The translations under genes were made by a program, and so were the position numbers. Below the pieces are notes generated by a model. That model did no database searches. It saw only the letters and a list, made by a program, of their open reading frames with translations, and was not told the origin of the DNA. Source: Escherichia phage CMS-2020a. From it: a stretch of 64,000 nucleotides of DNA. The stretch lies in the sequence record CP053388.1, one strand, 5' to 3'. Below, one piece after another: positions 1 through 47,508 of the stretch (position 1 is the first letter of the stretch; each line of letters starts with the position of its first letter).

Positions 1-104
1 TGTGAAAAAGGATTTGGCGTTCGGTTTCTTCAGTCATTACATCATTATTGCTGATATAGATAGGCTCAGCCCCATCGCAGAACAACACGCTGGCTGTTTG
101 TGGT

Positions 105-356
105 TTAATGACGCACCCACTTATCATACAACTCACGATGAACGGCAGAAGCATCTTTCTGACGTATTTTACTGCTCGTCTCATTCACCACTTTCACTGT
201 GTTTTGAAGTCGTTTTCTGTCTTCCTGTTTTGCCTTCTCTTCCATTGCTCGTCGCGCCGCATTCCCGCCCATCGTGTAAGCGCCGACAAGAACGAAAAGA
301 ACGGCAGCCAGCGTAATCAAAGCAACTTTTAGCTTTGTCATCAGGCTGCCTAGCAT
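105..356 (-). CDS. hypothetical membrane protein (N-terminal TM helix, charged C-terminus; possible spanin-like lysis component)
   Basis: 83-aa ORF with hydrophobic segment VALITLAAVLFVLVGAY; last gene of the late operon. Confidence 0.35.
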   Translation of the reverse strand: MLGSLMTKLKVALITLAAVLFVLVGAYTMGGNAARRAMEEKAKQEDRKRLQNTVKVVNETSSKIRQKDASAVHRELYDKWVRH

Positions 357-357
357 A

Positions 358-1077
358 TTAGACCATCCCTTTCTGGTGTCTTCTTACCTGCGACCAGGCA
401 ATGAATCCGGCCACAACAATAGTGGCAATGCCGAAGATGATGCGTACTGTATCCCCGCTAGAGATATGACCTTGTGCCTTATCCATAGCAGCGGAAACCT
501 GCGGCATAACATCGGCCAGCTGCGCCAGACCAATACCTGCTGTAACAGTTGCGCCTGCGGTTTCTTTAGTTACAGGAACAGCCTTCACGGTTTTCACCGG
601 CTTAACAACGCCAGCTCGACGCAGACCTTCCTCAATAACTTCTGCCGCATACCAGGTGTTCAGCGTTTTTAGCGGGCCTCGGCCATTCTCGTGGCGAATG
701 ATTGCCTCAACCAAAGGTCGAAGGATGTCGTAATCATGCAGATCGATGATCATGTCTGCGGTTACACCAACGGCTTTAGACACCTCATTAATGTAGGCGT
801 CAGTATTGTTTTCATTCGGCGGTGCCCAGCGTTCAATAACTTCACGAATGGTATCGATACTTGTGCCGTCTTTTGCGCGACGTTTATCGTGGTAGGTAAT
901 TAGAGTCACCGCCAGCGCACGAATCCCCCAAACAGGGTCTTTAAACGTGCAAAAGCGCGGTTCGGCAGGGTTGTCGATTAGCCCCTGCCACGGCGAACCT
1001 TTGTCGAGGTTGCCAGGGTTGTTATTACGAATGCCTCTCGGAGTTTTCATCCTTGATCTCCTGTTATTGCAGTCCAT
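358..1077 (-). CDS. hypothetical protein with C-terminal TM anchor (possible lysis or virion-associated protein)
   Basis: 239-aa ORF; RGIRNNNPGNL motif; C-terminal hydrophobic helix; sits between two small membrane proteins after the fibre genes. Confidence 0.45.
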   Translation of the reverse strand: MDCNNRRSRMKTPRGIRNNNPGNLDKGSPWQGLIDNPAEPRFCTFKDPVWGIRALAVTLITYHDKRRAKDGTSIDTIREVIERWAPPNENNTDAYINEVSKAVGVTADMIIDLHDYDILRPLVEAIIRHENGRGPLKTLNTWYAAEVIEEGLRRAGVVKPVKTVKAVPVTKETAGATVTAGIGLAQLADVMPQVSAAMDKAQGHISSGDTVRIIFGIATIVVAGFIAWSQVRRHQKGMV

Positions 1078-1399
1078 TCTTCACGCCATAAGCGGCCAGA
1101 CCCAGCAGCAGCGCGGTAATCAGGAACGACGTTATCTTTGAGATAATGCCGCCAAAGAACCCGCTGGAGATGGCGTCTAGCCGATTAAGTAGTTTGTCCA
1201 GGTTGGAGTGCTGAATGCTGTGTTGCGAAGGCGTCATATCGCCAAAGTAGGTTTTGAGCTGGTCGTTGACCTCCTGGCCAATTTCCTCACGCAACTCCTT
1301 ACCTAATTTGCCGACAACTTCACGCGCAACGATAGCGGCAATGCGCTCTACCTGCTCTGGCGTTACGCCTGCCATCTCGTTCGACATTATTTCCTCCAT
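1064..1399 (-). CDS. hypothetical small membrane protein (C-terminal TM; holin-like candidate)
   Basis: 111-aa ORF, C-terminal hydrophobic helix; overlaps start of downstream gene. Confidence 0.4.
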   Translation of the reverse strand: MEEIMSNEMAGVTPEQVERIAAIVAREVVGKLGKELREEIGQEVNDQLKTYFGDMTPSQHSIQHSNLDKLLNRLDAISSGFFGGIISKITSFLITALLLGLAAYGVKNGLQ

Positions 1400-1450
1400 G
1401 AATCGTCAAATCGGGATGGCGGTTTTATATCATAAAACGCCCACACTTGG

Positions 1451-1465
1451 TAGGTAAGTACTTAC
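1451..1465. promoter_or_regulatory. motif B palindrome
   Basis: taggtaagtacttac. Confidence 0.45.
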
Positions 1466-2301
1466 ACATGAGCGCCGTAAATTGCCCCAGCTTTAGTCCA
1501 TGTAGGCGCGTTGCCAGTTACGGCTTTACCAGCTGCTCCGCCGTTATATTCTGTACCGTTACCTTGAGTATTACATCTTCCTCCAGCAGCACCGACATTA
1601 CCACCCGAACCGCCTGTATATGCACTAAGAGACCCCTCACCAACAGATCCTTTACCAGGAGCGGAAATAGTACCAGCAGTTGCACCGGAACTCATATGAG
1701 AGGAAGACCCACCAGCACCGAATGGGCGACCACCGCCACCACCAAATATTAGTTTACCCCTGTTACCGCCGCCACCGCCGCCGCCACCTCCAGCGATTGC
1801 ACCATTATTCGTAATACGCAAGCGTGTACCGATGCCATTATTAATTGCGTTACCACCAGCAGCACCGGCAGCGTTACTACCACCATTGCCACCGCGTCCA
1901 TAGACAGTCACACCTGCGTTGATTACAAGGCTGATATAAGAGTTGGTAAGTGAACTCGGGAAATCTAAACATGGCACGCCGCTACTGGACGACACCAGAT
2001 CCCCTGTAATGGTAACAACGACTGGCGTCGCCCCCTGGGATTTTAAATAGTTGATCAGTGTGTCTTTGTTGTAGTTATGATTCGCACCGATGCTGTAATG
2101 AATTTCCTTAGAACGACCTGCTAACTGAGACATATTCCCAGCAGCAGACAATTGCACCGCCGTTCGAGCTGCACTCATCCATCTCTGGCCTGTCACACTG
2201 ACAGCCGAAGACCCAATCCAACCGGGAACACCGACAATTGGCACATCTAATCTCCTTTTTGATGTGAATATCCTGAATTGGTGAGGGTGGCCCCTCACCA
2301 T
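1462..2301 (-). CDS. glycine-rich protein (poly-Gly tracts; candidate adhesin or tail-fibre accessory)
   Basis: 279 aa with runs such as GGGGGGGGGN and many GGxGG repeats, directly downstream of the tail fibre gene. Confidence 0.6.
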   Translation of the reverse strand: MVRGHPHQFRIFTSKRRLDVPIVGVPGWIGSSAVSVTGQRWMSAARTAVQLSAAGNMSQLAGRSKEIHYSIGANHNYNKDTLINYLKSQGATPVVVTITGDLVSSSSGVPCLDFPSSLTNSYISLVINAGVTVYGRGGNGGSNAAGAAGGNAINNGIGTRLRITNNGAIAGGGGGGGGGNRGKLIFGGGGGRPFGAGGSSSHMSSGATAGTISAPGKGSVGEGSLSAYTGGSGGNVGAAGGRCNTQGNGTEYNGGAAGKAVTGNAPTWTKAGAIYGAHV

Positions 2302-2310
2302 TCACCTTGA

Positions 2311-5300
2311 TTACATTTTTGCCTTCAGTTCGCGCACTTCCTCGCGCAGCTCTTTGACAGCCTCGACCAACATGCCGATAACGCCGTTGTAGTTAAGACG
2401 CAGACGAGGCTCTCCTGACTGATCGTTATGGTCAACCGTTACCAGTTCAGGCTGAACATTCTGGACGTCCTGAGCGATGAGGCCGCCAGACTGCTCATAC
2501 CGGTCACAGACCTGAATCTCGTACAGAACACCTTCGATCCGATCCAGCTTGTCGAGCGCTCGTTCAATCTTGCGAATATTGCGTTTGCTACGACGGTCAG
2601 AGCGGATATAAACGTCATTAAAGCTGCCATTACCGCCACAAACCCAAGTACCATCATTCTGGAGGTATGCGTTCGCATCCGTGCCGTTTGCGGTACGTGA
2701 GTTGTTGATCATGTAAAAACCAAACTGACTGTTTCCCAAGCCACCCAAGAAGAATTTGCGATCCGCGTGGTCTTGTCTCAACAACGCTTGTGCAGAGCTT
2801 GTACTTACAGCGTTCCTCCCGAAGATGACGTTCTGGTTACGCATATCTATCCACGCGCCAGAGCCGCTGTTGATGGAAAAACGGTTGGCGTAAACCCACG
2901 CACTTGACGTGATGTCACCCGTTACACTCAACGGCTTAAGGCTTTGCAGCGTGCTATTAACGAACCTAAAAACATGGGCGCTATTGGCGTAAACATCCAG
3001 AATGCCATCTCCGTTCTGTTTAAAGCCGGTGTCATTGTCACCCAGAACAATGGAATTACCGCCAAGAGCACTGGATGTACCGATGCCCAGTGCACCATTC
3101 AATTGACCTCCAGATAATGATAACGCCCCAACATCAGCAGCAGTCGGTTTAATGTGCGAACTGTAAATTACATATACAGTTCCATCTGTCAGGCCTGTTG
3201 GTTTATTCGCTGTATAAGTTGGTGATGTATGAATCGTTACGCTGGCGTTACTGGTATAATCCCACTGGATATTAACACCTGTGGCGTAATTACCTATTTC
3301 TACATAAATGTCATAGGTATCACCGGATGTATTCACCCATGCAAAATTAGTAAATCCAACCGAGGTCCGTCGCCATAATGCACCAGTAATACCTTTGGGG
3401 TTCCCATTTCCTGCACGCAGAACCAGCTCAGAGATGCCTGCTTGCTGCGGGGAGCCAACGTTAAACCCTGCGCCACCAATCAGGCTTATGTAAACCACGG
3501 AACTGGCTTGTGGCATGGTTACAGTTGCCAGCTTGAACCATCCGGCACCACCACTAAAAGACATTGTTGCTGAGTTGATCGTGCCTATAGACCTTGGAGT
3601 TAGCTCAATATTTTTAGAACCGTCAAACGACACCCCATTTATAGTTCTAGCGGTTTGTAACTTGGTCGCTGTCGCTGCATTACCGGTTGTGTTCTGGTTA
3701 CCAGCAATGTTTACACCCGGCAGGTTGATATTGGCGGAGCCATCGAATGACACGCCGCCTATTGTGCGTGCTGTTTGCAGTTTTGTTGCAGTTGCAGCAT
3801 TACCGTTCAAACTACCATTGATGCCGCCAGTAACATTGAGTCCATTACCGATCGTAACAGCACCGCTGGTATTATTAATTATAATAGGTCGCAAACCGTT
3901 CCATGAACCTAATGTGTCTCCTGATGCTGTTAGCATGAAATATGTGTTCGATCCATCATTACGGATAAAGAATCCATAGTTGCCATAGGCAATGCGCAGA
4001 CCATTCGCCGATTTTGAAATAATCTCGCCAGCAGCAGTTAATCCGCCAGTTAACGCTCCTCCAGAAAGCGATAATGCTCCTACATCAGAAGCTGTTGGTT
4101 TGTTTCTAGTGTTATAAGAACGACGCCAGCCTGGCGCGTAATCACTGCCATTGTACACATAAATAAATTCCGCATTGTTAACACCACCATGACCCGATGT
4201 TGTTGTCGTTGTAACACGAATAGTGTAGTGGCTTGTTGCCTTATTACTAAACACCTCAATCACGGAACCAGATAGATCGATCCTACCGCAACCAGTGTCG
4301 TCTATATAATTATTGTTGGCGTAAGTCCATGAGCACCGTGCGATCCAATGTTTGTTTGTAAATGCCCCCTGATTATTTAGCCAAGTTATAAATTGAGCAG
4401 TCGTAAATGCCGTTCCGTTACCACTATTTAACCATCCAGCGGCAGCGGTTGGCGCGTTTATATCAGCCGGCTGAGGCATAAATCCAGTCGTGTAAACCTG
4501 CTCCCAACCACTTTCAAAACCATAGCCATCTCTTGAGGAACGGTAGAACAGACCACCATTTTTATAGTGAGCTTTAATTTGAAGCGTACGGCAACTACCT
4601 AAACCGGTATAAAAGTTGGCAAGAATATAACTGTGGCCTGTTCTATTTACATTATAAGCACCAGATTCAGCATTCCACGGCACGCCACCATCAGCATCCG
4701 CATATGACCCTGTTGCCCTTCTTGCGAAAGCGGCAACATGCGCAGCGGTTAAAGTGATATCAGTAGAACCATCAAATGGAACACCGGATATTTTTCTTAC
4801 CGTCTGAAGTTTTGTAGCAGTTGCAGCATTACCAGTGGTGTTCTGATTACCCGTAGTGTTTACACCTGGAAGGTTAATATTTGCAGAACCGTCGAAAACA
4901 ACTCCACCGATAGATCTTGCCGTCTGCAATTTCGTGGCTGTACTTGCATTACCATTCAATGAACCAGTTAATCCACCTGTAACAGACAACGGACCTGAAA
5001 CTGTTCCTCCGGTTGTTGGCAGTGCTCCAATATCTAACGGCGTCGGTTTCTGATGTGTGCTATACATCGTATAAACAACACCATCGGTAACGCTGGAAGG
5101 CTTACTCGCTGAATATGTTGGCGATGTATAAATAGAAACTGTCGCATTTGCAGTACAATCCCAATGGATATTTACACGAGTCGCATAATTGCCAATCTCA
5201 ACGTAAATATCATATGTATCGCCGGATGTGTTGATCCAGGCGAAATTCGTTAACCCGACGGCTGTACGCTTCCACAAAGCCCCGGTAATTCCTTTGGGGT

Positions 5301-7041
5301 TTCCATTGCCTGCTCGTAGAACCAGTTCTGAAATGCCTGCCTGATGTGGGGAACCGACGTTGTAACCAGCGCCACCAATCAATGCGATGTAAACGATGGA
5401 ACTCGCTTGTGGCATGGTAACCGTAGCCAGTTTGAACCACCCAGCCCCGCCAGAGAAAGACATCGTTACTGAATTTAAAGTACCAATATCTTTCGGCGTT
5501 AATGTTATATCCGCAGTCAGTGCTTTTCCGTTAACTTTTCGGTTAGATGGCACCCTGCTATTCGCATTGTCATTGGCTGCTTTAACTGCTTTTGGCGTTG
5601 CGGCCAGCGATTCACTGGTGCTATCAACAGCACTGCTAAGTTTCACAACACCTTTAGTTGTAAGGCTTGCGTCTTCCATCGCAACTGCACCGGCAATCTC
5701 TTCAGCACGATCAGCAGCAGCTTCCGCACGGGTCGCAGCGGATTCAGCAGCAGTTTTGCTCTGAGATGCTGCCGTCGCACTGCCTGCCGCCTCTGTTGCT
5801 TTCGTGGATGCCGTCGTGGCGCTGCCCTTCGCTGCTGACGCCTGTCTGGTCGCCTCATCTTTTGAAGCAGACGCAGATGATGCCGATGACGCTGCCGAAC
5901 TGGCGGACGATGCGGCTGCCGTTTTTGAGGATTCTGCACGGGTTTCCGACGCTTTCGCGTTCGTTTCGGATGTCTTCGCTGCGGAAGCAGACCTCGCTGC
6001 TGCGCTGGCCTGTTCAGTGGCTTCGCCAGCCTTCGTTGTGGCTGTTGAAGCAGACGATGCGGCACTTTCTGCCGATTTTCCGGCGGCGGTGGCACTGGCT
6101 GAGGCCTGCCCGGCACTTGTTGACGCGGCACTGGCAGACGACGCAGCCGCTGTTTTTGAGCCTGCCGCAGCTGAGGCACTCTGTCCCGCTGCCGTTTCAG
6201 AAGACCTGGCGTTCGTCTCGGACGTTTTTGCCGCCTTCGCGGAATTGCCTGCCGCTGTTGCCGAGGAGGCTGCACTACTGGCGCTCGAGGCTGCGCTCGT
6301 TTCTGATGATTTTGCCGCCTCTTTTGAAGCCGACGCATCTCTGGCTGAGGTGGCAGCTTCTGACGCTTTCGTGGTCGCGGTGGATGCAGAAGTGGCTGCA
6401 GATTTTTGTGACGCTGCAGCATTCGTTTCAGATTTTTTCGCAGCAGTTGCACTCGCACTTGCGGCACTTTGTGAGGATGCCGCAGCGGATGCACTTTGAG
6501 ACGCTTGAGAGGCTTTTTCTCCAGCGATATTGGCGCTTTCTGCTGCTGCGGCAGCACTGGCCGCCGCCTCACGAGCTTTGTCGCCAGCAGCATCAATCGC
6601 GTCAGTGTTATTTTTATACCACTCAACGTTTTCGTTGTGCTCGTTGACGATCTGCATTAGCGGCTTAACGGTCACTTCTGTACCGTCTTCACGCTCGATT
6701 GTCACCTCATCCAGAGCAGTCAACCAACTGCGCATGGACTTGGAATCAGCCGACATACGCGACATTAGTGCTGTAAAGCGCGCGCTAAACTGTGTTAAGT
6801 CGCCTTCATAGGTCGTAATGATTCGGCACGGAACTTCAGACTGAGTTTCGCCGGTATAAGGTTCTGAGAGAACAATGTTCGTATCACTGGTTACGCGCTT
6901 GATCTCATACAGCTTATTGTCGGGGCCAATGACGATCATCCCCGGCAACACACCATTAGCTGTTACGTTCCAGGCTGTCCCTGCCCCAACCAGAGTATTG
7001 CTACCCTGTGTAAATGTGATAGTACCTTCCCTGTACCACAT
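2311..7041 (-). CDS. long tail fibre protein with Ala/Ser-rich stalk, duplicated receptor-binding-type modules and C-terminal intramolecular chaperone (S74-like) domain
   Basis: 1576 aa; repeated TIGGVxFDGSxNIxL and NAATATKLQTAR fibre repeats; two copies of the MSFSGGAGWFKLATVTMPQASS module; C-terminal SDRRSKRNI motif. Confidence 0.9.
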   Translation of the reverse strand: MWYREGTITFTQGSNTLVGAGTAWNVTANGVLPGMIVIGPDNKLYEIKRVTSDTNIVLSEPYTGETQSEVPCRIITTYEGDLTQFSARFTALMSRMSADSKSMRSWLTALDEVTIEREDGTEVTVKPLMQIVNEHNENVEWYKNNTDAIDAAGDKAREAAASAAAAAESANIAGEKASQASQSASAAASSQSAASASATAAKKSETNAAASQKSAATSASTATTKASEAATSARDASASKEAAKSSETSAASSASSAASSATAAGNSAKAAKTSETNARSSETAAGQSASAAAGSKTAAASSASAASTSAGQASASATAAGKSAESAASSASTATTKAGEATEQASAAARSASAAKTSETNAKASETRAESSKTAAASSASSAASSASSASASKDEATRQASAAKGSATTASTKATEAAGSATAASQSKTAAESAATRAEAAADRAEEIAGAVAMEDASLTTKGVVKLSSAVDSTSESLAATPKAVKAANDNANSRVPSNRKVNGKALTADITLTPKDIGTLNSVTMSFSGGAGWFKLATVTMPQASSIVYIALIGGAGYNVGSPHQAGISELVLRAGNGNPKGITGALWKRTAVGLTNFAWINTSGDTYDIYVEIGNYATRVNIHWDCTANATVSIYTSPTYSASKPSSVTDGVVYTMYSTHQKPTPLDIGALPTTGGTVSGPLSVTGGLTGSLNGNASTATKLQTARSIGGVVFDGSANINLPGVNTTGNQNTTGNAATATKLQTVRKISGVPFDGSTDITLTAAHVAAFARRATGSYADADGGVPWNAESGAYNVNRTGHSYILANFYTGLGSCRTLQIKAHYKNGGLFYRSSRDGYGFESGWEQVYTTGFMPQPADINAPTAAAGWLNSGNGTAFTTAQFITWLNNQGAFTNKHWIARCSWTYANNNYIDDTGCGRIDLSGSVIEVFSNKATSHYTIRVTTTTTSGHGGVNNAEFIYVYNGSDYAPGWRRSYNTRNKPTASDVGALSLSGGALTGGLTAAGEIISKSANGLRIAYGNYGFFIRNDGSNTYFMLTASGDTLGSWNGLRPIIINNTSGAVTIGNGLNVTGGINGSLNGNAATATKLQTARTIGGVSFDGSANINLPGVNIAGNQNTTGNAATATKLQTARTINGVSFDGSKNIELTPRSIGTINSATMSFSGGAGWFKLATVTMPQASSVVYISLIGGAGFNVGSPQQAGISELVLRAGNGNPKGITGALWRRTSVGFTNFAWVNTSGDTYDIYVEIGNYATGVNIQWDYTSNASVTIHTSPTYTANKPTGLTDGTVYVIYSSHIKPTAADVGALSLSGGQLNGALGIGTSSALGGNSIVLGDNDTGFKQNGDGILDVYANSAHVFRFVNSTLQSLKPLSVTGDITSSAWVYANRFSINSGSGAWIDMRNQNVIFGRNAVSTSSAQALLRQDHADRKFFLGGLGNSQFGFYMINNSRTANGTDANAYLQNDGTWVCGGNGSFNDVYIRSDRRSKRNIRKIERALDKLDRIEGVLYEIQVCDRYEQSGGLIAQDVQNVQPELVTVDHNDQSGEPRLRLNYNGVIGMLVEAVKELREEVRELKAKM
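3125..3840 (-). repeat. intragenic direct repeat block, copy 2 (module X2 plus fibre-repeat set 2) within tail fibre gene
   Basis: About 80-85% nucleotide identity to 4760-5470; antisense ORFs at 3515 and 5414 start with the same MVTVASLNHPAPP peptide. Confidence 0.75.
4760..5470 (-). repeat. intragenic direct repeat block, copy 1 (module X1 plus fibre-repeat set 1) within tail fibre gene
   Basis: Paralogous to 3125-3840 (offsets about 1.15 and 1.9 kb for the two sub-modules). Confidence 0.75.
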
Positions 7042-43292: not shown

Positions 43293-43592
43293 TTACCAGT
43301 TCCAGCACTCAAGCCCTTCAACGACTGGTGCTCCACAATCAAAATGTACAGAGTCAAAGCCTACATCAAGTACTTTCTGAATGTTAGCAATCGCGCCTTC
43401 GGATATACCATATCGACGCAAGTCGTCTTTCCAGACATCATCCTGTAACCCGGCGTGAACAATACAACCGCCATCAATTTGTGAAACCCAATCCAGCTCA
43501 TTGCTTGCGATCATGAATCGGCGAGCATCTTCCTCTGATGTATGAGATGAACTGATCAATGCCACCTGGTAGGCTTGGGTAATGTTCAACAT
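43293..43592 (-). CDS. hypothetical protein
   Basis: 99 aa; GGAG RBS; two motif A copies upstream. Confidence 0.5.
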   Translation of the reverse strand: MLNITQAYQVALISSSHTSEEDARRFMIASNELDWVSQIDGGCIVHAGLQDDVWKDDLRRYGISEGAIANIQKVLDVGFDSVHFDCGAPVVEGLECWNW

Positions 43593-43604
43593 TTCAACTA
43601 CTCC

Positions 43605-43629
43605 AAAACAAGTTGTTTTCTTATGTGGC
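43605..43629. promoter_or_regulatory. motif A
   Basis: aaaacaagttgttttcttatgtggc. Confidence 0.6.
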
Positions 43630-43646
43630 TTATTATCTCAATCAAC

Positions 43647-43675
43647 AAAAGGTAGAAAACAAATTGTTTTAGGGC
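43647..43675. promoter_or_regulatory. motif A variant
   Basis: aaaaggtagaaaacaaattgttttagggc; candidate -10 GATAAT lies between the two copies. Confidence 0.5.
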
Positions 43676-43704
43676 TTGTGTAAATCAGGAGGGATTGTGT
43701 CTAT

Positions 43705-43736
43705 ATGAAAATGCCCGGCGTGTTGCCGGGCATTGT
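43705..43736 (-). terminator. metG terminator hairpin
   Basis: aatgcccggc..gccgggcatt just after the metG stop. Confidence 0.5.
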
Positions 43737-43753
43737 GAAAAATGGTTGTTTAG

Positions 43754-45787
43754 TTACTTAACTTGGTGGCCTGGTTTAGCACCAGCATCCGGGCTTAACA
43801 GGAAGATATCTTTTCCGCCAGGGCCAGCAGCCATCACCATGCCTTCGGAGATACCGAAGCGCATTTTACGCGGTGCCAGGTTAGCCACCATAATGGTGTG
43901 ACGACCAATCAGTGCCTGTGGATCTGGATAAGCGGAACGAATGCCTGAGAAGACATTACGTTTTTCTCCGCCGAGATCCAGTGTCAGGCGCAGCAGTTTG
44001 TCAGAACCTTCGACAAACTCCGCGTTTTCAATCAGCGCCACACGCAGGTCAACTTTGGCGAAGTCGTCAAAGGTGATGGTTTCCTGAATCGGGGCGTCAG
44101 CCAGTGGGCCAGTTACCGGTGCAGCTGTGGCTTTCACTTCTTCTTTGGATGCTTCCACCAGTGCTTCCACCTGTTTCATATCGATACGGTTATACAGTGC
44201 CTTGAACGGATTCACTTTATGGCCCAGCAGCGGTTGCTGGATACCATCCCAGGTCAGTTCTGTATTCAGGAATGCTTCTGCACGTTCAGTCAGTTTCGGC
44301 AGTACCGGTTTCAGGTACGTCATCAGCACGCGGAACAGGTTAATGCCCATAGAGCAAATCGCCTGCAGATCGGCATCGCGTCCTTCCTGCTTCGCCACCA
44401 CCCACGGAGCCTGTTCATCAACATAGCGGTTAGCCAGGTCAGCCAGTGCCATGATTTCACGGATAGCTTTGCCAAATTCGCGGCTTTCCCATGCTTCGCC
44501 AATCACTTCAGCGGCATCAGTAAAGGTTTTGTACAGTTGCGGGTCAGCCAGTTCGCTTGCCAGCACGCCGTCAAAACGCTTGTTGATAAAGCCTGCATTA
44601 CGGGAGGCCAGGTTAACCACTTTGTTCACGATATCGGCATTCACGCGCTGAACGAAATCTTCCAGGTTGAGATCGATATCATCAATGCGCGAAGAGAGTT
44701 TCGCAGTGTAGTAGTAACGCAGGCTGTCGGCGTCAAAATGATTCAGCCAGGTGCTGGCTTTAATAAAGGTGCCGCGAGACTTGGACATCTTCGCACCGTT
44801 CACCGTCACATAGCCATGAACAAACAGGTTGGTCGGCTTGCGGAAGTTGCTGCCTTCTAGCATGGCAGGCCAGAACAGGCTGTGGAAGTAAACGATATCT
44901 TTGCCGATGAAGTGGTACAGCTCGGCGGTGGAGTCTTTCTTCCAGTATTCGTCGAAGCTGGTAGTGTCGCCGCGTTTGTCGCACAGATTCTTGAAGGAAC
45001 CCATGTAGCCAATCGGCGCGTCCAGCCAGACGTAGAAGTATTTGCCCGGTGCGTTCGGAATTTCAAAACCGAAGTAAGGTGCGTCACGGGAGATATCCCA
45101 CTGTTGCAGGCCAGATTCAAACCACTCCTGCATTTTGTTTGCCACCTGCTCCTGCAACGCACCGCTGCGGGTCCATGCCTGCAACATTTCGCTGAAAGAA
45201 GGCAGATCAAAGAAGAAGTGTTCGGAATCACGCATTACCGGTGTAGCGCCAGAAACTACCGATTTCGGCTCGATCAGTTCCGTCGGGCTGTATGTCGCGC
45301 CGCAGACTTCACAGTTATCGCCGTATTGATCCGGCGCTTTACATTTCGGGCATGTGCCTTTTACAAAACGGTCCGGCAGGAACATGCCTTTTTCCGGGTC
45401 GTACAGCTGAGAGATGGTGCGGTTTTTAATAAAACCGTTCTCTTTCAGGCGAGTGTAGATAAGCTCGGACAACTGACGGTTCTCTTCGCTGTGCGTCGAG
45501 TGATAGTTGTCATAGCTGATGTTAAAGCCTGCGAAATCAGTCTGATGTTCCTGACTCATTTCGCCAATCATCTGCTCCGGTGTGATACCAAGCTGCTGTG
45601 CTTTCAGCATGATCGGCGTACCGTGGGCATCGTCGGCACAGATGAAATTAACCTCGTGGCCGCGCATTCGCTGGTAACGAACCCAGACATCAGCCTGGAT
45701 GTGCTCCAGCATATGGCCGAGGTGGATTGAGCCGTTAGCGTACGGCAGCGCGCACGTCACCAGAATTTTCTTCGCGACTTGGGTCAT
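43754..45787 (-). CDS. metG: methionyl-tRNA synthetase
   Basis: Start [25 protein letters not shown] (HIGH motif), KMSKS motif, C-terminal tRNA-binding domain; matches enterobacterial MetG as recalled from memory. Confidence 0.97.
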
Positions 45788-45944
45788 AGTAGGCATTACT
45801 TCTTTGTAGTGAAAAGGGGCTTGATAGTAACAAAATGGCCTTATGTCTGCCATGTGATAACAGCATTTCTCATAAATGATTAAATGTCGTAGCTGGAGTA
45901 CACTACAAGGCGACAATTGCGCAAATTAAAATAAAGGAGACGGG

Positions 45945-47045
45945 ATGAGCGAGTCCAAATCGCCGGATGCCCTGAGAGCAATGGTAGCCGGTACGCTGGC
46001 TAATTTTCAGCACCCAACCCTGAAACACAACCTGACTACGCTTAAAGCGTTACACCATGTTGCGTTGATGGATGACACACTGCATGTCGAACTAATCATG
46101 CCTTTCGTGTGGAATAAGCCTTTTGAAGACCTGAAAGAGCAATGTAGTGGTGATCTGCTCCGTATCACTGGCGCAAAGGCTATTGACTGGAAGCTGTCGT
46201 ACAACATTGCCACGCTTAAGCGTGTCAAAAACCAACCAGGCATTAATGGCGTTAAGAACATTATCGCCGTCAGCTCAGGCAAGGGCGGCGTGGGTAAATC
46301 CTCCACGGCGGTAAACCTGGCACTGGCGTTGGCTGCTGAAGGTGCGAAAGTTGGTATTTTGGATGCCGATATCTATGGTCCATCAATTCCAACCATGCTG
46401 GGCGCGGAAAACCAACGTCCAACCTCACCTGACGGTACTCACATGGCACCTATCATGTCTCATGGCCTGGCAACCAACTCTATTGGTTATCTGGTCACCG
46501 ACGACAATGCAATGGTGTGGCGTGGACCGATGGCCAGCAAGGCGCTGATGCAGATGTTGCAGGAAACATTGTGGCCTGATCTGGACTATCTTGTTCTCGA
46601 TATGCCGCCGGGCACTGGTGATATTCAGTTGACGCTGGCGCAGAACATTCCTGTAACTGGTGCTGTTGTGGTAACTACGCCGCAAGACATCGCGCTGATC
46701 GATGCGAAGAAAGGCATTGTGATGTTCGAAAAAGTCGAAGTGCCGGTACTGGGTATCGTTGAAAACATGAGTGTGCATATTTGCAGTAACTGCGGTCATC
46801 ACGAGCCAATTTTTGGCACCGGTGGCGCACAGAAACTGGCCGAGAAATACAACACGCAGTTGTTAGGCCAAATGCCACTTCATATCTCTCTTCGTGAAGA
46901 TCTGGATAACGGAACACCAACCGTTATTAGTCGTCCAGATAGCGAATTTACAGCTATTTATCGTGACCTCGCAGATCGCGTTGCCGCCCAAATGTATTGG
47001 CAAGGTGAAGTAATACCTGGCGAAATCGCATTCCGCGCAGTGTGA
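45945..47045 (+). CDS. apbC: Fe-S cluster carrier ATPase ApbC/Mrp
   Basis: P-loop SGKGGVGKSS and CxxC motif; divergent from metG with AAGGAG RBS, the native enterobacterial arrangement. Confidence 0.95.
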   Translation: MSESKSPDALRAMVAGTLANFQHPTLKHNLTTLKALHHVALMDDTLHVELIMPFVWNKPFEDLKEQCSGDLLRITGAKAIDWKLSYNIATLKRVKNQPGINGVKNIIAVSSGKGGVGKSSTAVNLALALAAEGAKVGILDADIYGPSIPTMLGAENQRPTSPDGTHMAPIMSHGLATNSIGYLVTDDNAMVWRGPMASKALMQMLQETLWPDLDYLVLDMPPGTGDIQLTLAQNIPVTGAVVVTTPQDIALIDAKKGIVMFEKVEVPVLGIVENMSVHICSNCGHHEPIFGTGGAQKLAEKYNTQLLGQMPLHISLREDLDNGTPTVISRPDSEFTAIYRDLADRVAAQMYWQGEVIPGEIAFRAV

Positions 47046-47072
47046 TAAAAAGGCGGTGCATTGCACCGCCTA
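47046..47072. terminator. hairpin terminator at the apbC / UmuD'-like junction
   Basis: aaaaa + ggcggtgcattgcaccgcc; U-tract is on the minus-strand side. Confidence 0.55.
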
Positions 47073-47082
47073 ATCAGTTCTC

Positions 47083-47472
47083 CTACATCACGGGACAATC
47101 ATCAAACTCGCCACTTCTTGCGTCGTTGATAATGTGAGTGATCACACCAAACACGGCATTGCTGCCCGTGCATCCATCGTCATCCTTTGGCAATGCTTCC
47201 TTCTTACCGGTTCTTAAATCCTCCAGATGCTGACGTGGGTACTTCCGGTATCTTTTTACGCGATATTCCCCATCCAGAGCGCATACAAGCAGAGAACCAT
47301 CAACCGGGGTAAGTGAGGAATCGACCACCAGCAATGCACCCTGTAATATTCCCTCACGATGATGACTATCAGCTGCCCTCATGAAGTAGGTCGCTGAAGG
47401 ATGTCTAATTATCTGCTGATCAAGAGAAATACGGCTCTCAACATAATCCGCCGCAGGAGAAGGGAAGCCCAT
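47083..47472 (-). CDS. UmuD'-like S24 peptidase-family protein (N-terminally pre-truncated, HumD-like)
   Basis: GFPSPAADYVESRISLDQQIIRHPSATYF aligns with UmuD from its autocleavage-site region onward; no umuC. Confidence 0.85.
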   Translation of the reverse strand: MGFPSPAADYVESRISLDQQIIRHPSATYFMRAADSHHREGILQGALLVVDSSLTPVDGSLLVCALDGEYRVKRYRKYPRQHLEDLRTGKKEALPKDDDGCTGSNAVFGVITHIINDARSGEFDDCPVM

Positions 47473-47488
47473 AATACTCGCCTCTTAA

Positions 47489-47508
47489 TACTGTATACAC
47501 ATACAGTA
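47489..47508. promoter_or_regulatory. LexA (SOS) box overlapping the UmuD'-like promoter
   Basis: tactgtatacacatacagta = CTGT-N8-ACAG; -35 TTCAAA and -10 TATACT on minus strand. Confidence 0.85.

Follow-up and report, generated by a model that had tools for sequence, protein, structure and literature searches.

A probable late lysis cassette with an Enc34-type, C-terminally anchored endolysin in an SSU5-like phage-plasmid of Escherichia coli

Among described lysis systems, those of Hafnia phage Enc34 and Salmonella phage BSPM4 are the closest to the locus considered here, and the endolysins of both have been studied experimentally. Enc34 ORF39deltaC and the BSPM4 enzyme M4Lys degrade peptidoglycan, and in these homologues lysis from within depends on a transmembrane domain (TMD) (Cernooka et al. 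2022, PMC8943055; Bai, Lee & Ryu 2020, PMC7143992). In the case of Enc34, full-length ORF39 is toxic, Glu131 has been proposed as the catalytic residue, and the roles of the conserved Tyr95 and Trp79 have been described (PMC8943055). M4Lys alone lyses E. coli, with no need of its holin and also when azide is present; its TMD by itself is bacteriostatic, and deletion of the TMD abolishes lysis even when the upstream protein is supplied (PMC7143992). This cognate upstream protein is dispensable for lysis and, upon co-expression, delays it slightly, while M4Lys itself resembled an N-acetylglucosaminidase and gave some endopeptidase-like products (PMC7143992).

The present study concerns one end of a 64,000-nucleotide stretch of DNA (henceforth, the window; record CP053388.1), in which positions 1-1399 of the minus strand very probably constitute the late lysis cassette of an SSU5-like phage-plasmid. 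Four proteins would be encoded: a holin-like protein, an endolysin of the Enc34/M4Lys type, an i-spanin and an o-spanin. A lysis cassette of this type is already known and is ordinary for SSU5-like phage-plasmids. The initial annotation, made by eye, had proposed an atypical candidate lysis cassette here, or else an uncharacterised or virion-associated module. The cassette is borne out by the Enc34-type endolysin, the spanins and the annotation of SSU5 and Cyrano, and it is indeed atypical in that its endolysin is predicted to be anchored in the membrane at the C terminus; it is not uncharacterised, as the family includes homologues with muralytic activity in experiment (PMC8943055, PMC7143992).

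Setting and reality of the genes

The nucleotide matches place the window in an SSU5-like phage-plasmid of E. coli. Positions 1-2400 are 99.0% identical to an E. coli RefSeq plasmid, and identity of the window is 94.6% with the phage-plasmid Cyrano and 84.4% with SSU5; the cassette region (window 1-2400) is matched in 252 of the 5426 complete E. coli genomes. The 64 kb cover part of an element of roughly 110 kb, and many genes of SSU5-like elements are hypothetical. Cyrano is known to make siphovirus virions (PMC9928086). The counterparts of the cassette genes in Cyrano and SSU5 are annotated Holin, Endolysin, Rz and Rz1, labels that are database predictions only, and a literature search found no experimental work on the lysis genes of either element.

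As the initial annotation had it, the cassette follows the fibre genes. Upstream, on the same strand, lie a tail fibre ORF of 1576 aa (2311..7041) and, directly before the cassette, the gene of a gp38-type adhesin (1462..2301; Pfam GP38, E=1.9e-70). A scan of window 1-2500, which includes the interval between the adhesin and fibre genes and the cassette, found no promoter-like site, and terminator-like sites were at chance level; transcription of the cassette thus probably continues from the fibre operon.

The three minus-strand ORFs reported initially, at 1064..1399 (111 aa), 358..1077 (239 aa) and 105..356 (83 aa), are all present. Their lengths stand as open frames, but the likelier starts, based on Shine-Dalgarno sequences and on those used in Cyrano and RefSeq, give proteins of 107, 230 and 83 aa. 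The predicted transmembrane segments were also placed correctly: a 19-residue Kyte-Doolittle profile shows a single strong hydrophobic segment per ORF, at ~80-105 of the 111-aa reading, ~205-232 of the 239-aa reading (peak 2.07) and 1-34 of the 83-aa protein (peak 2.38). The ORFs are real genes rather than chance frames, since they match PHROG 873 'endolysin' (E=2.4e-87), PHROG 1026 'Rz-like spanin' over the full length (E=7e-25) and PHROG 5093 'unknown function' (E=1.2e-67, the 107-aa protein), and since the endolysin has 1867 homologue clusters and the region recurs in the 252 genomes mentioned above.

The four predicted proteins

The second gene (358..1050, minus strand) codes for a protein of 230 aa, which PDB 7Q47, PHROG 873 and Foldseek all point to as an Enc34-type (PHA02564) endolysin. 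Its ATG at 1050, with AGGAG 7 nt upstream and an identical start annotated in Cyrano and RefSeq, is a likelier start than the ATG at 1077 that opens the 239-aa ORF. PDB 7Q47 is matched by phmmer at E=1.1e-53 (query residues 10-160 of the 239-aa reading), and in BLASTP the protein is 54% identical to Enc34 ORF39 over the full length, TMD included (E=9e-87). The catalytic domain (residues ~1-150, window 1050..601, minus strand) includes the N-terminal RGIRNNNPGN, part of the RGIRNNNPGNL motif that had been noted at the outset and spans residues 14-24 of the 239-aa reading. It also includes W75, Y86 and the putative catalytic residue E121 (codon 690..688, minus strand). W75 (in RWAPP), Y86 and E121 (in RHENG) are invariant in an alignment of 30 homologues and align with Trp79, Tyr95 and Glu131 of Enc34, respectively. 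The AlphaFold model has pLDDT >84 over residues 31-150, with five helices in 39-145. A Foldseek search with this model, of the kind suggested in the initial annotation, returned 7q47_B as the top match (E=4e-15, TM 0.81, rmsd 2.4 Å), and the significant PDB matches were 7q47_A and 7q47_B only (TM 0.76-0.81). As modelled, the N-terminal domain is all-helical and resembles the alpha-lobe of lysozyme in its fold.

Beyond a linker, the model being of low confidence from about residue 151 on, a membrane domain of two helices and a basic tail are predicted at the C terminus, in a region that aligns with the Enc34 TMD. An amphipathic helix (~176-192), weakly hydrophobic and rich in Gly, Ala and Thr (mean hydropathy ~0.4-1.1), is followed by a TM helix (~199-226, window 456..373, minus strand; hydropathy peak 2.07) and by the tail RRHQKGMV (net charge +3). 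In the 30-sequence alignment, 12 positions between residues 159 and 221 are invariant. The endolysin has no N-terminal hydrophobic segment, as its hydropathy peaks only at residues ~164-226. A classification as a signal-anchor-release (SAR) endolysin was rejected because the hydrophobic peaks are C-terminal only and the N-terminal signal anchor is lacking. By homology, the 230-aa protein is an endolysin of the Enc34/M4Lys type, and by analogy with these homologues it would be muralytic and would need its TMD.

The initial view that no enzyme signature is recognisable holds for the Pfam and NCBIfam scans, in which the endolysin and the 107-aa and 83-aa proteins gave sub-threshold noise only, and for RefSeq, which labels the endolysin 'membrane protein' in the plasmid inspected. 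It does not hold for PDB 7Q47, PHROG 873 or the structure search. No lysozyme signature was evident by eye because the endolysin family, of the Enc34/M4Lys type with a C-terminal anchor, is poorly annotated.

The third gene (105..356, minus strand), whose start overlaps the endolysin stop (TAATATG), codes for an 83-aa Rz-like i-spanin. As described initially, it has an N-terminal TMD (residues ~5-27), here followed by a charged helical periplasmic part; its orthologue is annotated Rz in Cyrano and SSU5, and its similarity to Enc34 ORF40 is weak (28%, E=5e-4). A length of 83 aa is short for an Rz, yet Enc34 ORF40 is of the same size.

A fourth gene had been missed in the initial set of three membrane proteins. 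Frame translation and similarity to the putative Rz1 of Enc34, ORF41 (43% identity, E=1e-21), identify it as coding for an Rz1-like lipoprotein, the o-spanin (1..184, minus strand, partial). Its ATG at 184 lies inside the Rz gene (356..105) in another frame, and the gene extends past Rz in an overlapped architecture. It also passes the left end of the window, beyond which lie its last 10 codons and stop; the full 71 aa were read in a 99%-identical plasmid (L003). The signal peptide MRRAVKYVRKMLLPFIVSCMISG is directly followed by the Cys (codon 115..113) of the lipobox I-S-G-C. SSU5_029 is annotated at the equivalent position, and the SSU5 o-spanin was grouped with that of Enc34 in a 'Chi' family by Kongari et al. 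2018 (PMC6139136). RefSeq leaves the gene uncalled in the plasmid inspected, and Rz1 of Cyrano is annotated from an internal GTG, hence without the signal peptide. With the sequence features of an i-spanin in one product and of an o-spanin in the other, the cassette is taken to hold a two-component Rz/Rz1 spanin pair of overlapped architecture.

The first gene (1064..1387, minus strand) codes for a holin-like protein of 107 aa, which belongs to PHROG 5093 (63 representatives at the 50% identity level). The ATG at 1387, preceded by GGAGG 5 nt upstream and used identically by Cyrano and RefSeq, is the likelier start; the in-frame ATG at 1399 (MEEIM..., 111-aa ORF) lacks a Shine-Dalgarno sequence, and the residues gained from it would be acidic, not basic. 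The protein is composed of a helical, net-acidic N-terminal domain of ~75 aa, one C-terminal TMD (residues ~76-101) and a tail of 5-6 aa, and its low-confidence structure model (pLDDT 57.8) contains two long helices. Just before the TMD lies the conserved motif YFGDMTPSQHSIQH, in which G49, H56 and H60 are invariant in family alignments (G-x6-H-x3-H). In common with holins, the protein is small, has at least one TMD and adjoins the endolysin gene. The tail after the TMD is KNGLQ only, the charged C-terminal tail and dual-start motif typical of holins are absent, and no curated holin family in Pfam, NCBIfam or PHROG 'holin' includes it. Homology to Enc34 ORF38 and to the Chi-like 'lysis protein B' was considered and rejected, with hhalign probabilities of 0.2% and 0.6%, respectively. 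A literature search found no experimental data on members of PHROG 5093. On the strength of its gene position, the 107-aa protein is most likely a holin or lysis timer.

Gene order in relatives and alternative readings

The order of holin-like gene, PHA02564 endolysin and Rz is found at 21 of the 22 viral loci; one of the 21, L016, has its Rz homologue about 1.3 kb farther downstream. Distant homologues of the 107-aa protein (26-40% identical) are situated immediately upstream of at least three other endolysin types: Peptidase_M15_3 directly follows the PHROG 5093 homologue in L028, L032 and L036, Amidase_2 in L030/L031, and a PHROG 669 endolysin in L005. Wherever upstream sequence is available, these distant homologues are directly behind tail-fibre genes. 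The relatives with soluble endolysins also carry a second small protein with two or three TMDs, which could be their real holin. The separate two-TMD protein sits where the SSU5-like elements have the fused endolysin TMD, and in L005 an extra three-TMD ORF lies next to the PHROG 5093 homologue. The idea that the C-terminal TMD of the endolysin is a fused copy of the two-TMD protein was rejected: the positions agree, but the hhalign probability is 0.2%. A scan of genome contigs returned no relatives, and a metagenome scan returned one short contig with nothing downstream.

We tentatively suggest that the members of PHROG 5093 are holins or lysis timers and that the family has gone unrecognised as such. 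Across SSU5-related phages of ~100 kb it has stayed the first cassette gene, although the endolysin beside it varies between at least four catalytic types unrelated to one another. Its paired His residues might be a metal- or pH-dependent trigger, and in the SSU5-like elements the protein might gate the C-terminally anchored endolysin. It is also conceivable, if rather doubtful, that the cassette is self-sufficient through its endolysin, the C-terminal two-helix domain permeabilising or crossing the inner membrane so that holin and endolysin are combined in one chain, with the 107-aa protein as a regulator (antiholin-like inhibitor, timer or partner). The behaviour of M4Lys and its TMD, the slight delay caused by the upstream protein (PMC7143992) and the toxicity of full-length Enc34 ORF39 are consistent with such a function. 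The C-terminal domain, with its 12 invariant positions, is moreover far more conserved than a simple anchor requires, the 107-aa protein is devoid of a charged C-terminal tail, and the relatives with soluble endolysins have their separate two-TMD protein at the position of the fused TMD, or the extra three-TMD ORF of L005. The M4Lys data, however, come from strong over-expression, the upstream protein of that phage is unrelated to PHROG 5093, and the C-terminal domain has no detectable homology to the separate two-TMD proteins. In addition, the 107-aa gene occupies the classic holin position, first in the cassette and adjoining, often overlapping, the endolysin gene, and homologues retain this position next to soluble M15 and amidase endolysins as well, for which a hole is necessary.

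It is very improbable that the 230-aa protein is instead a virion-associated peptidoglycan hydrolase for infection, with all three proteins belonging to a virion or entry module. The virion-associated reading offered initially is right in so far as the PHA02564 domain, originally named 'virion protein', does occur in virion and ejection proteins: it is found inside PHROG 7182 'tail injection transglycosylase', PHROG 2276 'tape measure' and PHROG 992 'head protein', in Gp29 of PDB 9vvp (1295 aa), in Kayfunavirus gp16-like internal virion proteins and in phage D6. Such virion fusions match residues ~4-146 only, whereas the full-length match (54%) is to endolysins of Enc34/Chi-like cassettes. The copy in the window is a stand-alone gene with a C-terminal TMD, outside the structural ORFs and in lysis-cassette synteny; the Rz/Rz1 spanin pair adjoins it, and no other endolysin to perform lysis was found in the annotations of SSU5 and of the colinear plasmid. 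Equally improbable is the suggestion that the cassette ORFs are unrelated membrane proteins and that lysis is due to genes in another part of the element or beyond the window. The window holds only 64 kb of the roughly 110 kb and many SSU5-like genes are hypothetical, but the PHROG-based RefSeq annotation of SSU5, covering 100 of its 103 kb, lists holin, endolysin and spanins at this locus only. The closest plasmid has no other holin, endolysin or spanin annotated over its colinear 47.5 kb, where PGAP lists no lysozyme, amidase or transglycosylase, the sole peptidase being a lambda-K-like C40 tail protein; ten ORFs from 48-60 kb gave no lysis-category match; and tblastn detected neither a second PHA02564 copy nor paralogues in the window. 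A canonical cassette elsewhere in the element was thus sought in SSU5, in the colinear plasmid and in the window, and was not found.

Proposed course of lysis and comparison with known systems

With the locus read as a four-gene lysis cassette, the 107-aa protein would act as holin or lysis timer, and the endolysin would cleave the glycan strand of peptidoglycan, E121 serving as the catalytic acid and W75 and Y86 positioning the substrate. The two-helix membrane domain, with its basic cytoplasmic tail, would tether the endolysin to the inner membrane and would be needed for it to reach the wall. Rz/Rz1 spanin pairs disrupt the outer membrane once the wall has been degraded, and the 83-aa i-spanin in the inner membrane and the 71-aa o-spanin lipoprotein in the outer membrane would do so here. 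Since M4Lys needs no holin to lyse E. coli and does so even with azide present, the function of the 107-aa protein may, by analogy, be to trigger or gate an enzyme tethered to the membrane and not to make large holes.

Neither Pfam nor NCBIfam has a model for this abundant endolysin family, and as a result the RefSeq label of the endolysin is 'membrane protein' in some 250 complete E. coli genomes. Phage-plasmids, which are often carriers of resistance genes, seem to have no lysis genes because the endolysin is mislabelled and the o-spanin uncalled. The discovery value is small: SSU5 and Cyrano already carry annotations of the cassette, and a crystal structure and activity data exist for the enzyme family. 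As a widespread inducible element of E. coli, the phage-plasmid would offer a convenient system for studying the route of a C-terminally anchored endolysin to the wall and for the role of the His-pair protein.

The direct orthologues of the cassette, in the same order, are SSU5 gp26-gp30 and Cyrano CYRAN_22-25. The Cyrano holin-like protein is 95-98% identical to that of the window and the endolysin 98% identical; SSU5 differs in that its adhesin and holin genes are separated by cor and membrane-protein genes, which are absent in the window. Like the cassette described here, ORF38-41 of Enc34 (PMC8943055) comprise a small membrane protein, an endolysin, Rz and an overlapped Rz1, behind morphogenesis genes. 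The endolysins share, in addition to their 54% identity over the full length, the proposed catalytic Glu, Tyr and Trp and the predicted fold; the o-spanins are 43% identical, and the i-spanins are of the same size and weakly similar. In ORF38, however, the TMD is N-terminal and a coiled coil makes up the C-terminal part, whereas the 107-aa protein has the reverse arrangement and no sequence similarity to ORF38, and Enc34 is a 60-kb Chi-like virulent siphovirus as opposed to a phage-plasmid of ~110 kb. M4Lys of BSPM4 (PMC7143992) is of the same family, with a PHA02564 domain, a C-terminal TMD and a basic tail, and Chi-like homologues are ~55% identical to the window endolysin. The muralytic activity of M4Lys, its lysis independent of holin and of azide-sensitive Sec, and its indispensable TMD are known from experiment, whereas the SSU5-type protein is known from sequence. 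That ORF_37 of BSPM4 ('lysis protein B') belongs to the Enc34 ORF38 type is an assumption made from the 'lysis protein B' of Serratia phage Smarc6, a Chi-like protein that is 60% identical to Enc34 ORF38 and unrelated to PHROG 5093.

In SAR-endolysin/pinholin systems, such as S21-R21 of phage 21 and Lyz of P1, a membrane-tethered endolysin can be unleashed by depolarisation of the membrane. The window endolysin shares the concept of a tethered enzyme whose activity depolarisation could set free, and the weak hydrophobicity and high Gly, Ala and Thr content of its first C-terminal helix are like those of SAR domains; unlike these systems, its anchor is C-terminal rather than N-terminal, it has no N-terminal signal, and its fold is unrelated to the T4 and P1 lysozymes. 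The lysis operon of P2 runs from the holin Y through the endolysin K to lysA and lysB/C. Distant relatives of the cassette parallel this order, with a small membrane protein, an endolysin, a second small membrane protein and overlapped spanins, whereas the SSU5-type cassette has no separate second membrane protein. Both comparisons have been drawn for Enc34, whose endolysin was discussed in relation to the SAR type and whose spanin overlap was likened by its authors to that of P2 (PMC8943055).

Organization and genomic setting of the cassette

The initial annotation proposed an atypical candidate lysis cassette of three membrane-anchored proteins at 105-1399, and all three reading frames were recovered on the minus strand of window 1-1399: the gene of a 107-aa holin-like protein (1064..1399; 111 aa in the longest ORF), that of a 230-aa endolysin (358..1077; 239 aa in the longest ORF) and that of an 83-aa i-spanin (105..356). 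Each contains one strongly hydrophobic stretch at the position described, and the RGIRNNNPGNL motif is present in the 239-aa reading. The cassette indeed follows the fibre genes, i.e., a tail-fibre ORF of 1576 aa (2311..7041) and a gp38-type adhesin (1462..2301; Pfam GP38, E=1.9e-70). For the first two genes, internal ATGs at positions 1387 and 1050 are likelier starts than those of the longest ORFs; these codons are preceded by GGAGG and AGGAG, yield the 107- and 230-aa products, respectively, and are used in both the Cyrano and RefSeq annotations. A fourth minus-strand gene, absent from the initial list, is an o-spanin ORF in another frame, which starts at 184 within the 83-aa gene and continues past the left window end. 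Its N-terminus, MRRAVKYVRKMLLPFIVSCMISG followed by CVIKPQ..., is a lipoprotein signal with a lipobox, and the complete 71-aa product was read in the 99%-identical plasmid.

Window 1-2400 shows 99.0% identity to an E. coli plasmid. Of 5426 complete E. coli genomes, 252 contain a match to it, located on a plasmid in every case but one, and more than 1100 plasmid records match the first 25 kb. Among phages, the phage-plasmids Cyrano (94.6%) and SSU5 (84.4%) come closest, the former being an inducible element that makes siphovirus particles (PMC9928086). As regards family, structure and the database annotation of direct orthologues, the cassette is already known. The four genes are annotated in Cyrano as Holin, Endolysin, Rz spanin and Rz1 spanin, and in SSU5 as putative holin, endolysin and Rz-like spanins. 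In the RefSeq/PGAP annotation of the 99%-identical plasmid (L003 2472-3887), the endolysin is a 'membrane protein', the holin-like and Rz genes are each a 'hypothetical protein', and the o-spanin is not called. In Cyrano, the annotated Rz1 begins at an internal GTG and so misses its signal peptide.

Several neighbouring features were also recorded. The adhesin at 1462..2301 (minus strand) is of the T-even type (Gp38_N is also matched), lies behind the fibre gene of a siphovirus-like phage-plasmid and shows 83-92% nucleotide identity to gp38 of Krischvirus-type myoviruses (RB49, JSE, Phi1); SSU5 and Cyrano carry other genes at this position. This distribution suggests that virulent T-even phages and temperate phage-plasmids exchange receptor-binding modules. 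The tail-fibre ORF (minus strand) contains a long Ala/Ser-rich low-complexity tract, two copies at high identity of a ~140-aa internal module (TMSFSGGAGWFKLATVTMPQASS...TSPTY...KP) and, judging from the translation, a C-terminal end resembling an intramolecular chaperone; the fibre gene of the closest plasmid is longer and divergence lies within it. Window ~43300-47500 is colinear with plasmid NZ_JBWDPT010000001.1 (97% identity) and by colinearity carries host-like genes, namely metG (methionine-tRNA ligase), apbC and those of a DNA polymerase III theta homologue and a translesion polymerase subunit of the HumD family. Beyond the left window edge, the closest relatives encode, directly after the o-spanin, an antitoxin of the TacA type together with a GNAT (KacT/TacT-type) acetyltransferase toxin (L003 1638-2436; L001 2102-2936), and then a ParA/MipZ-type partition ATPase.

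The endolysin and the search for other lysis genes

The initial annotation saw no lysozyme, amidase or transglycosylase signature by eye, which fits the lack of any significant Pfam or NCBIfam match for the 230-aa protein; neither database has a model for this family, despite its 1867 clusters. An endolysin domain is nevertheless recognizable by other means. PHROG 873 'endolysin' is matched at E=2.4e-87, and a PDB sequence search returns 7Q47 'Endolysin' (E=1.1e-53), the catalytic domain of Hafnia phage Enc34 ORF39 (PMC8943055); full-length ORF39 is 54% identical, membrane domain included. In a structure search, as had been recommended, the AlphaFold model, confident at residues 31-150, has as its sole significant PDB neighbours the two 7Q47 chains (TM-score 0.76-0.81, rmsd 2.4-2.8 A). 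Three residues, W75, Y86 and E121, do not vary among 30 aligned homologues and correspond to the conserved Trp79 and Tyr95 and the proposed catalytic Glu131 of Enc34 (PMC8943055); the N-terminal G-x-R-x-x-N-P-G-N motif is mostly invariant. The C-terminal third, predicted to comprise an amphipathic Gly/Ala/Thr-rich helix (176-192), a hydrophobic helix (199-226) and the tail RRHQKGMV, is unusually conserved, with 12 invariant positions in residues 159-221. By sequence and predicted structure, the protein belongs to a known endolysin type, and the notion of an uncharacterised module falls away, since the family has both a structure (7Q47) and a functional study (M4Lys of Salmonella phage BSPM4).

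The possibility that the true lysis genes lie outside the window found no support. The PHROG-based annotation of SSU5 (100 of 103 kb inspected) places holin, endolysin and spanins at this locus alone; no lysozyme, amidase or transglycosylase is annotated in the plasmid that is colinear with window 1-47.5 kb, its sole peptidase being a lambda-K-like C40 tail protein; ten ORFs at 48-60 kb gave no lysis-category match; and by tblastn none of the three proteins is duplicated in the window. A virion-associated module was also considered, an idea that reflects a genuine trait of the family: PHA02564 domains (the Enc34/M4Lys-type endolysin domain) are also found within ejection proteins, tape-measure proteins and internal virion proteins. 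Such proteins match the catalytic domain alone, however, whereas the present gene has the architecture and neighbours of a lysis cassette. The initial interpretation holds in part: the genes form an atypical lysis cassette, but it does include an endolysin and is not uncharacterised.

The 107-aa holin-like protein

The sole uncertain part of the cassette is its first gene. Its 107-aa product has PHROG 5093 as its match (E=1.2e-67), a family labelled 'unknown function', and hits no Pfam or NCBIfam family; relatives of at least 60% identity are restricted to SSU5-like elements from Enterobacterales. When 1.8 billion representatives were searched with a profile, 63 proteins scored E<=1e-3, mostly of 94-162 aa, with a few fragments or long multi-domain proteins. 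The 22 homologues aligned share an identical layout; G49, H56 and H60 are invariant in the motif FGDMxxxxHxxxH, ~20 residues ahead of a single C-terminal TMD. Kinship with the pre-endolysin small membrane proteins of Enc34 and of a Chi-like phage was rejected (hhalign probability 0.2% and 0.6%, respectively).

In 21 of 22 viral-contig loci the holin-like gene is followed by a PHA02564 endolysin and then by Rz; in one of these, L016, the Rz homologue lies ~1.3 kb further downstream. Distant homologues (26-40% identical) directly precede endolysins of other types, and in many cases the stop codon overlaps the next start: Peptidase_M15_3 (L028, L032, L036), Amidase_2 (L030, L031) and PHROG 669 (L005). 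Where upstream sequence exists, it holds tail-fibre or fibre-chaperone genes. Such genomic association is good evidence for a lysis role, and the first position is the classic holin position.

Relatives with soluble endolysins encode a 72-90-aa two-TMD protein after the endolysin (L030 4300-4557; L033 4246-4518; L028 4755-4973). It is conserved in distant SSU5-related phages (motif KDYIMAxGPxN...FWFGE), is followed by an Rz-like gene, has no match in PHROG or Pfam and is a candidate holin or antiholin; L005 has a 3-TMD ORF ahead of the endolysin. The SSU5-like elements, in contrast, have no separate protein of this kind. Derivation of the endolysin TMD from a fused copy of it agrees in position, found no sequence support and was rejected. 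Downstream of these lysis cassettes lies a conserved ~400-aa protein (L005 5910-7106, L030 5256-6449, L032 1948-3138, L033 4959-6191; motif RNFFRV...ESVWN.HFGTF.EFKRQAGI), followed in L030 by a PhoH-family ATPase gene (Pfam), which indicates a backbone common to ~100-kb elements well beyond the SSU5 group.

A firm holin call is weakened by these extra small TMD proteins, by the near absence of a C-terminal tail in the 107-aa protein and by the low confidence of its structure model. On the strength of the association, and in view of these weaknesses, a holin or lysis timer is the leading reading, which we favour with moderate confidence within the overall model; regulation of a self-exporting endolysin is a serious, though less likely, rival. 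What remains of interest is PHROG 5093, with its pair of invariant histidines and its link to several endolysin types, together with the way in which C-terminally anchored endolysins are exported.

Proposed lysis pathway and relationship to known modules

Because no promoter-like site was found between the fibre operon and the cassette, late transcription would presumably run on from the former into the latter, and the four proteins would be made. By homology and the positive-inside rule, the C-terminal domain would anchor the endolysin in the inner membrane and leave the basic tail on the cytoplasmic side. Once lysis is due, the enzyme would reach the murein, and the 107-aa protein may depolarise or permeabilise the membrane or relieve inhibition. 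E121 would then cut the glycan strand, an activity known from homologues. The Rz/Rz1 complex would act last and disrupt the outer membrane, as is established in spanin biology.

In the homologue M4Lys, the catalytic domain degrades peptidoglycan to N-acetylglucosaminidase-type products, and the full-length protein alone suffices for E. coli lysis, whether or not azide is present; without the TMD lysis is lost, and the TMD by itself is bacteriostatic (PMC7143992). The route of the catalytic domain to the periplasm is unknown according to both endolysin papers (PMC8943055, PMC7143992).

PHROG 1026 'Rz-like spanin' covers the 83-aa protein from end to end (E=7e-25), and this protein is weakly similar to Enc34 ORF40; the overlapped lipoprotein shares 43% identity with ORF41 (E=1e-21); a spanin survey places the o-spanins of SSU5 and Enc34 alike in the 'Chi' family (PMC6139136). 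Taken with the similarity to ORF39, these sequence relationships show that the endolysin and the o-spanin are homologous to their counterparts in the Enc34/Chi-type module, with a less clear case for the i-spanin.
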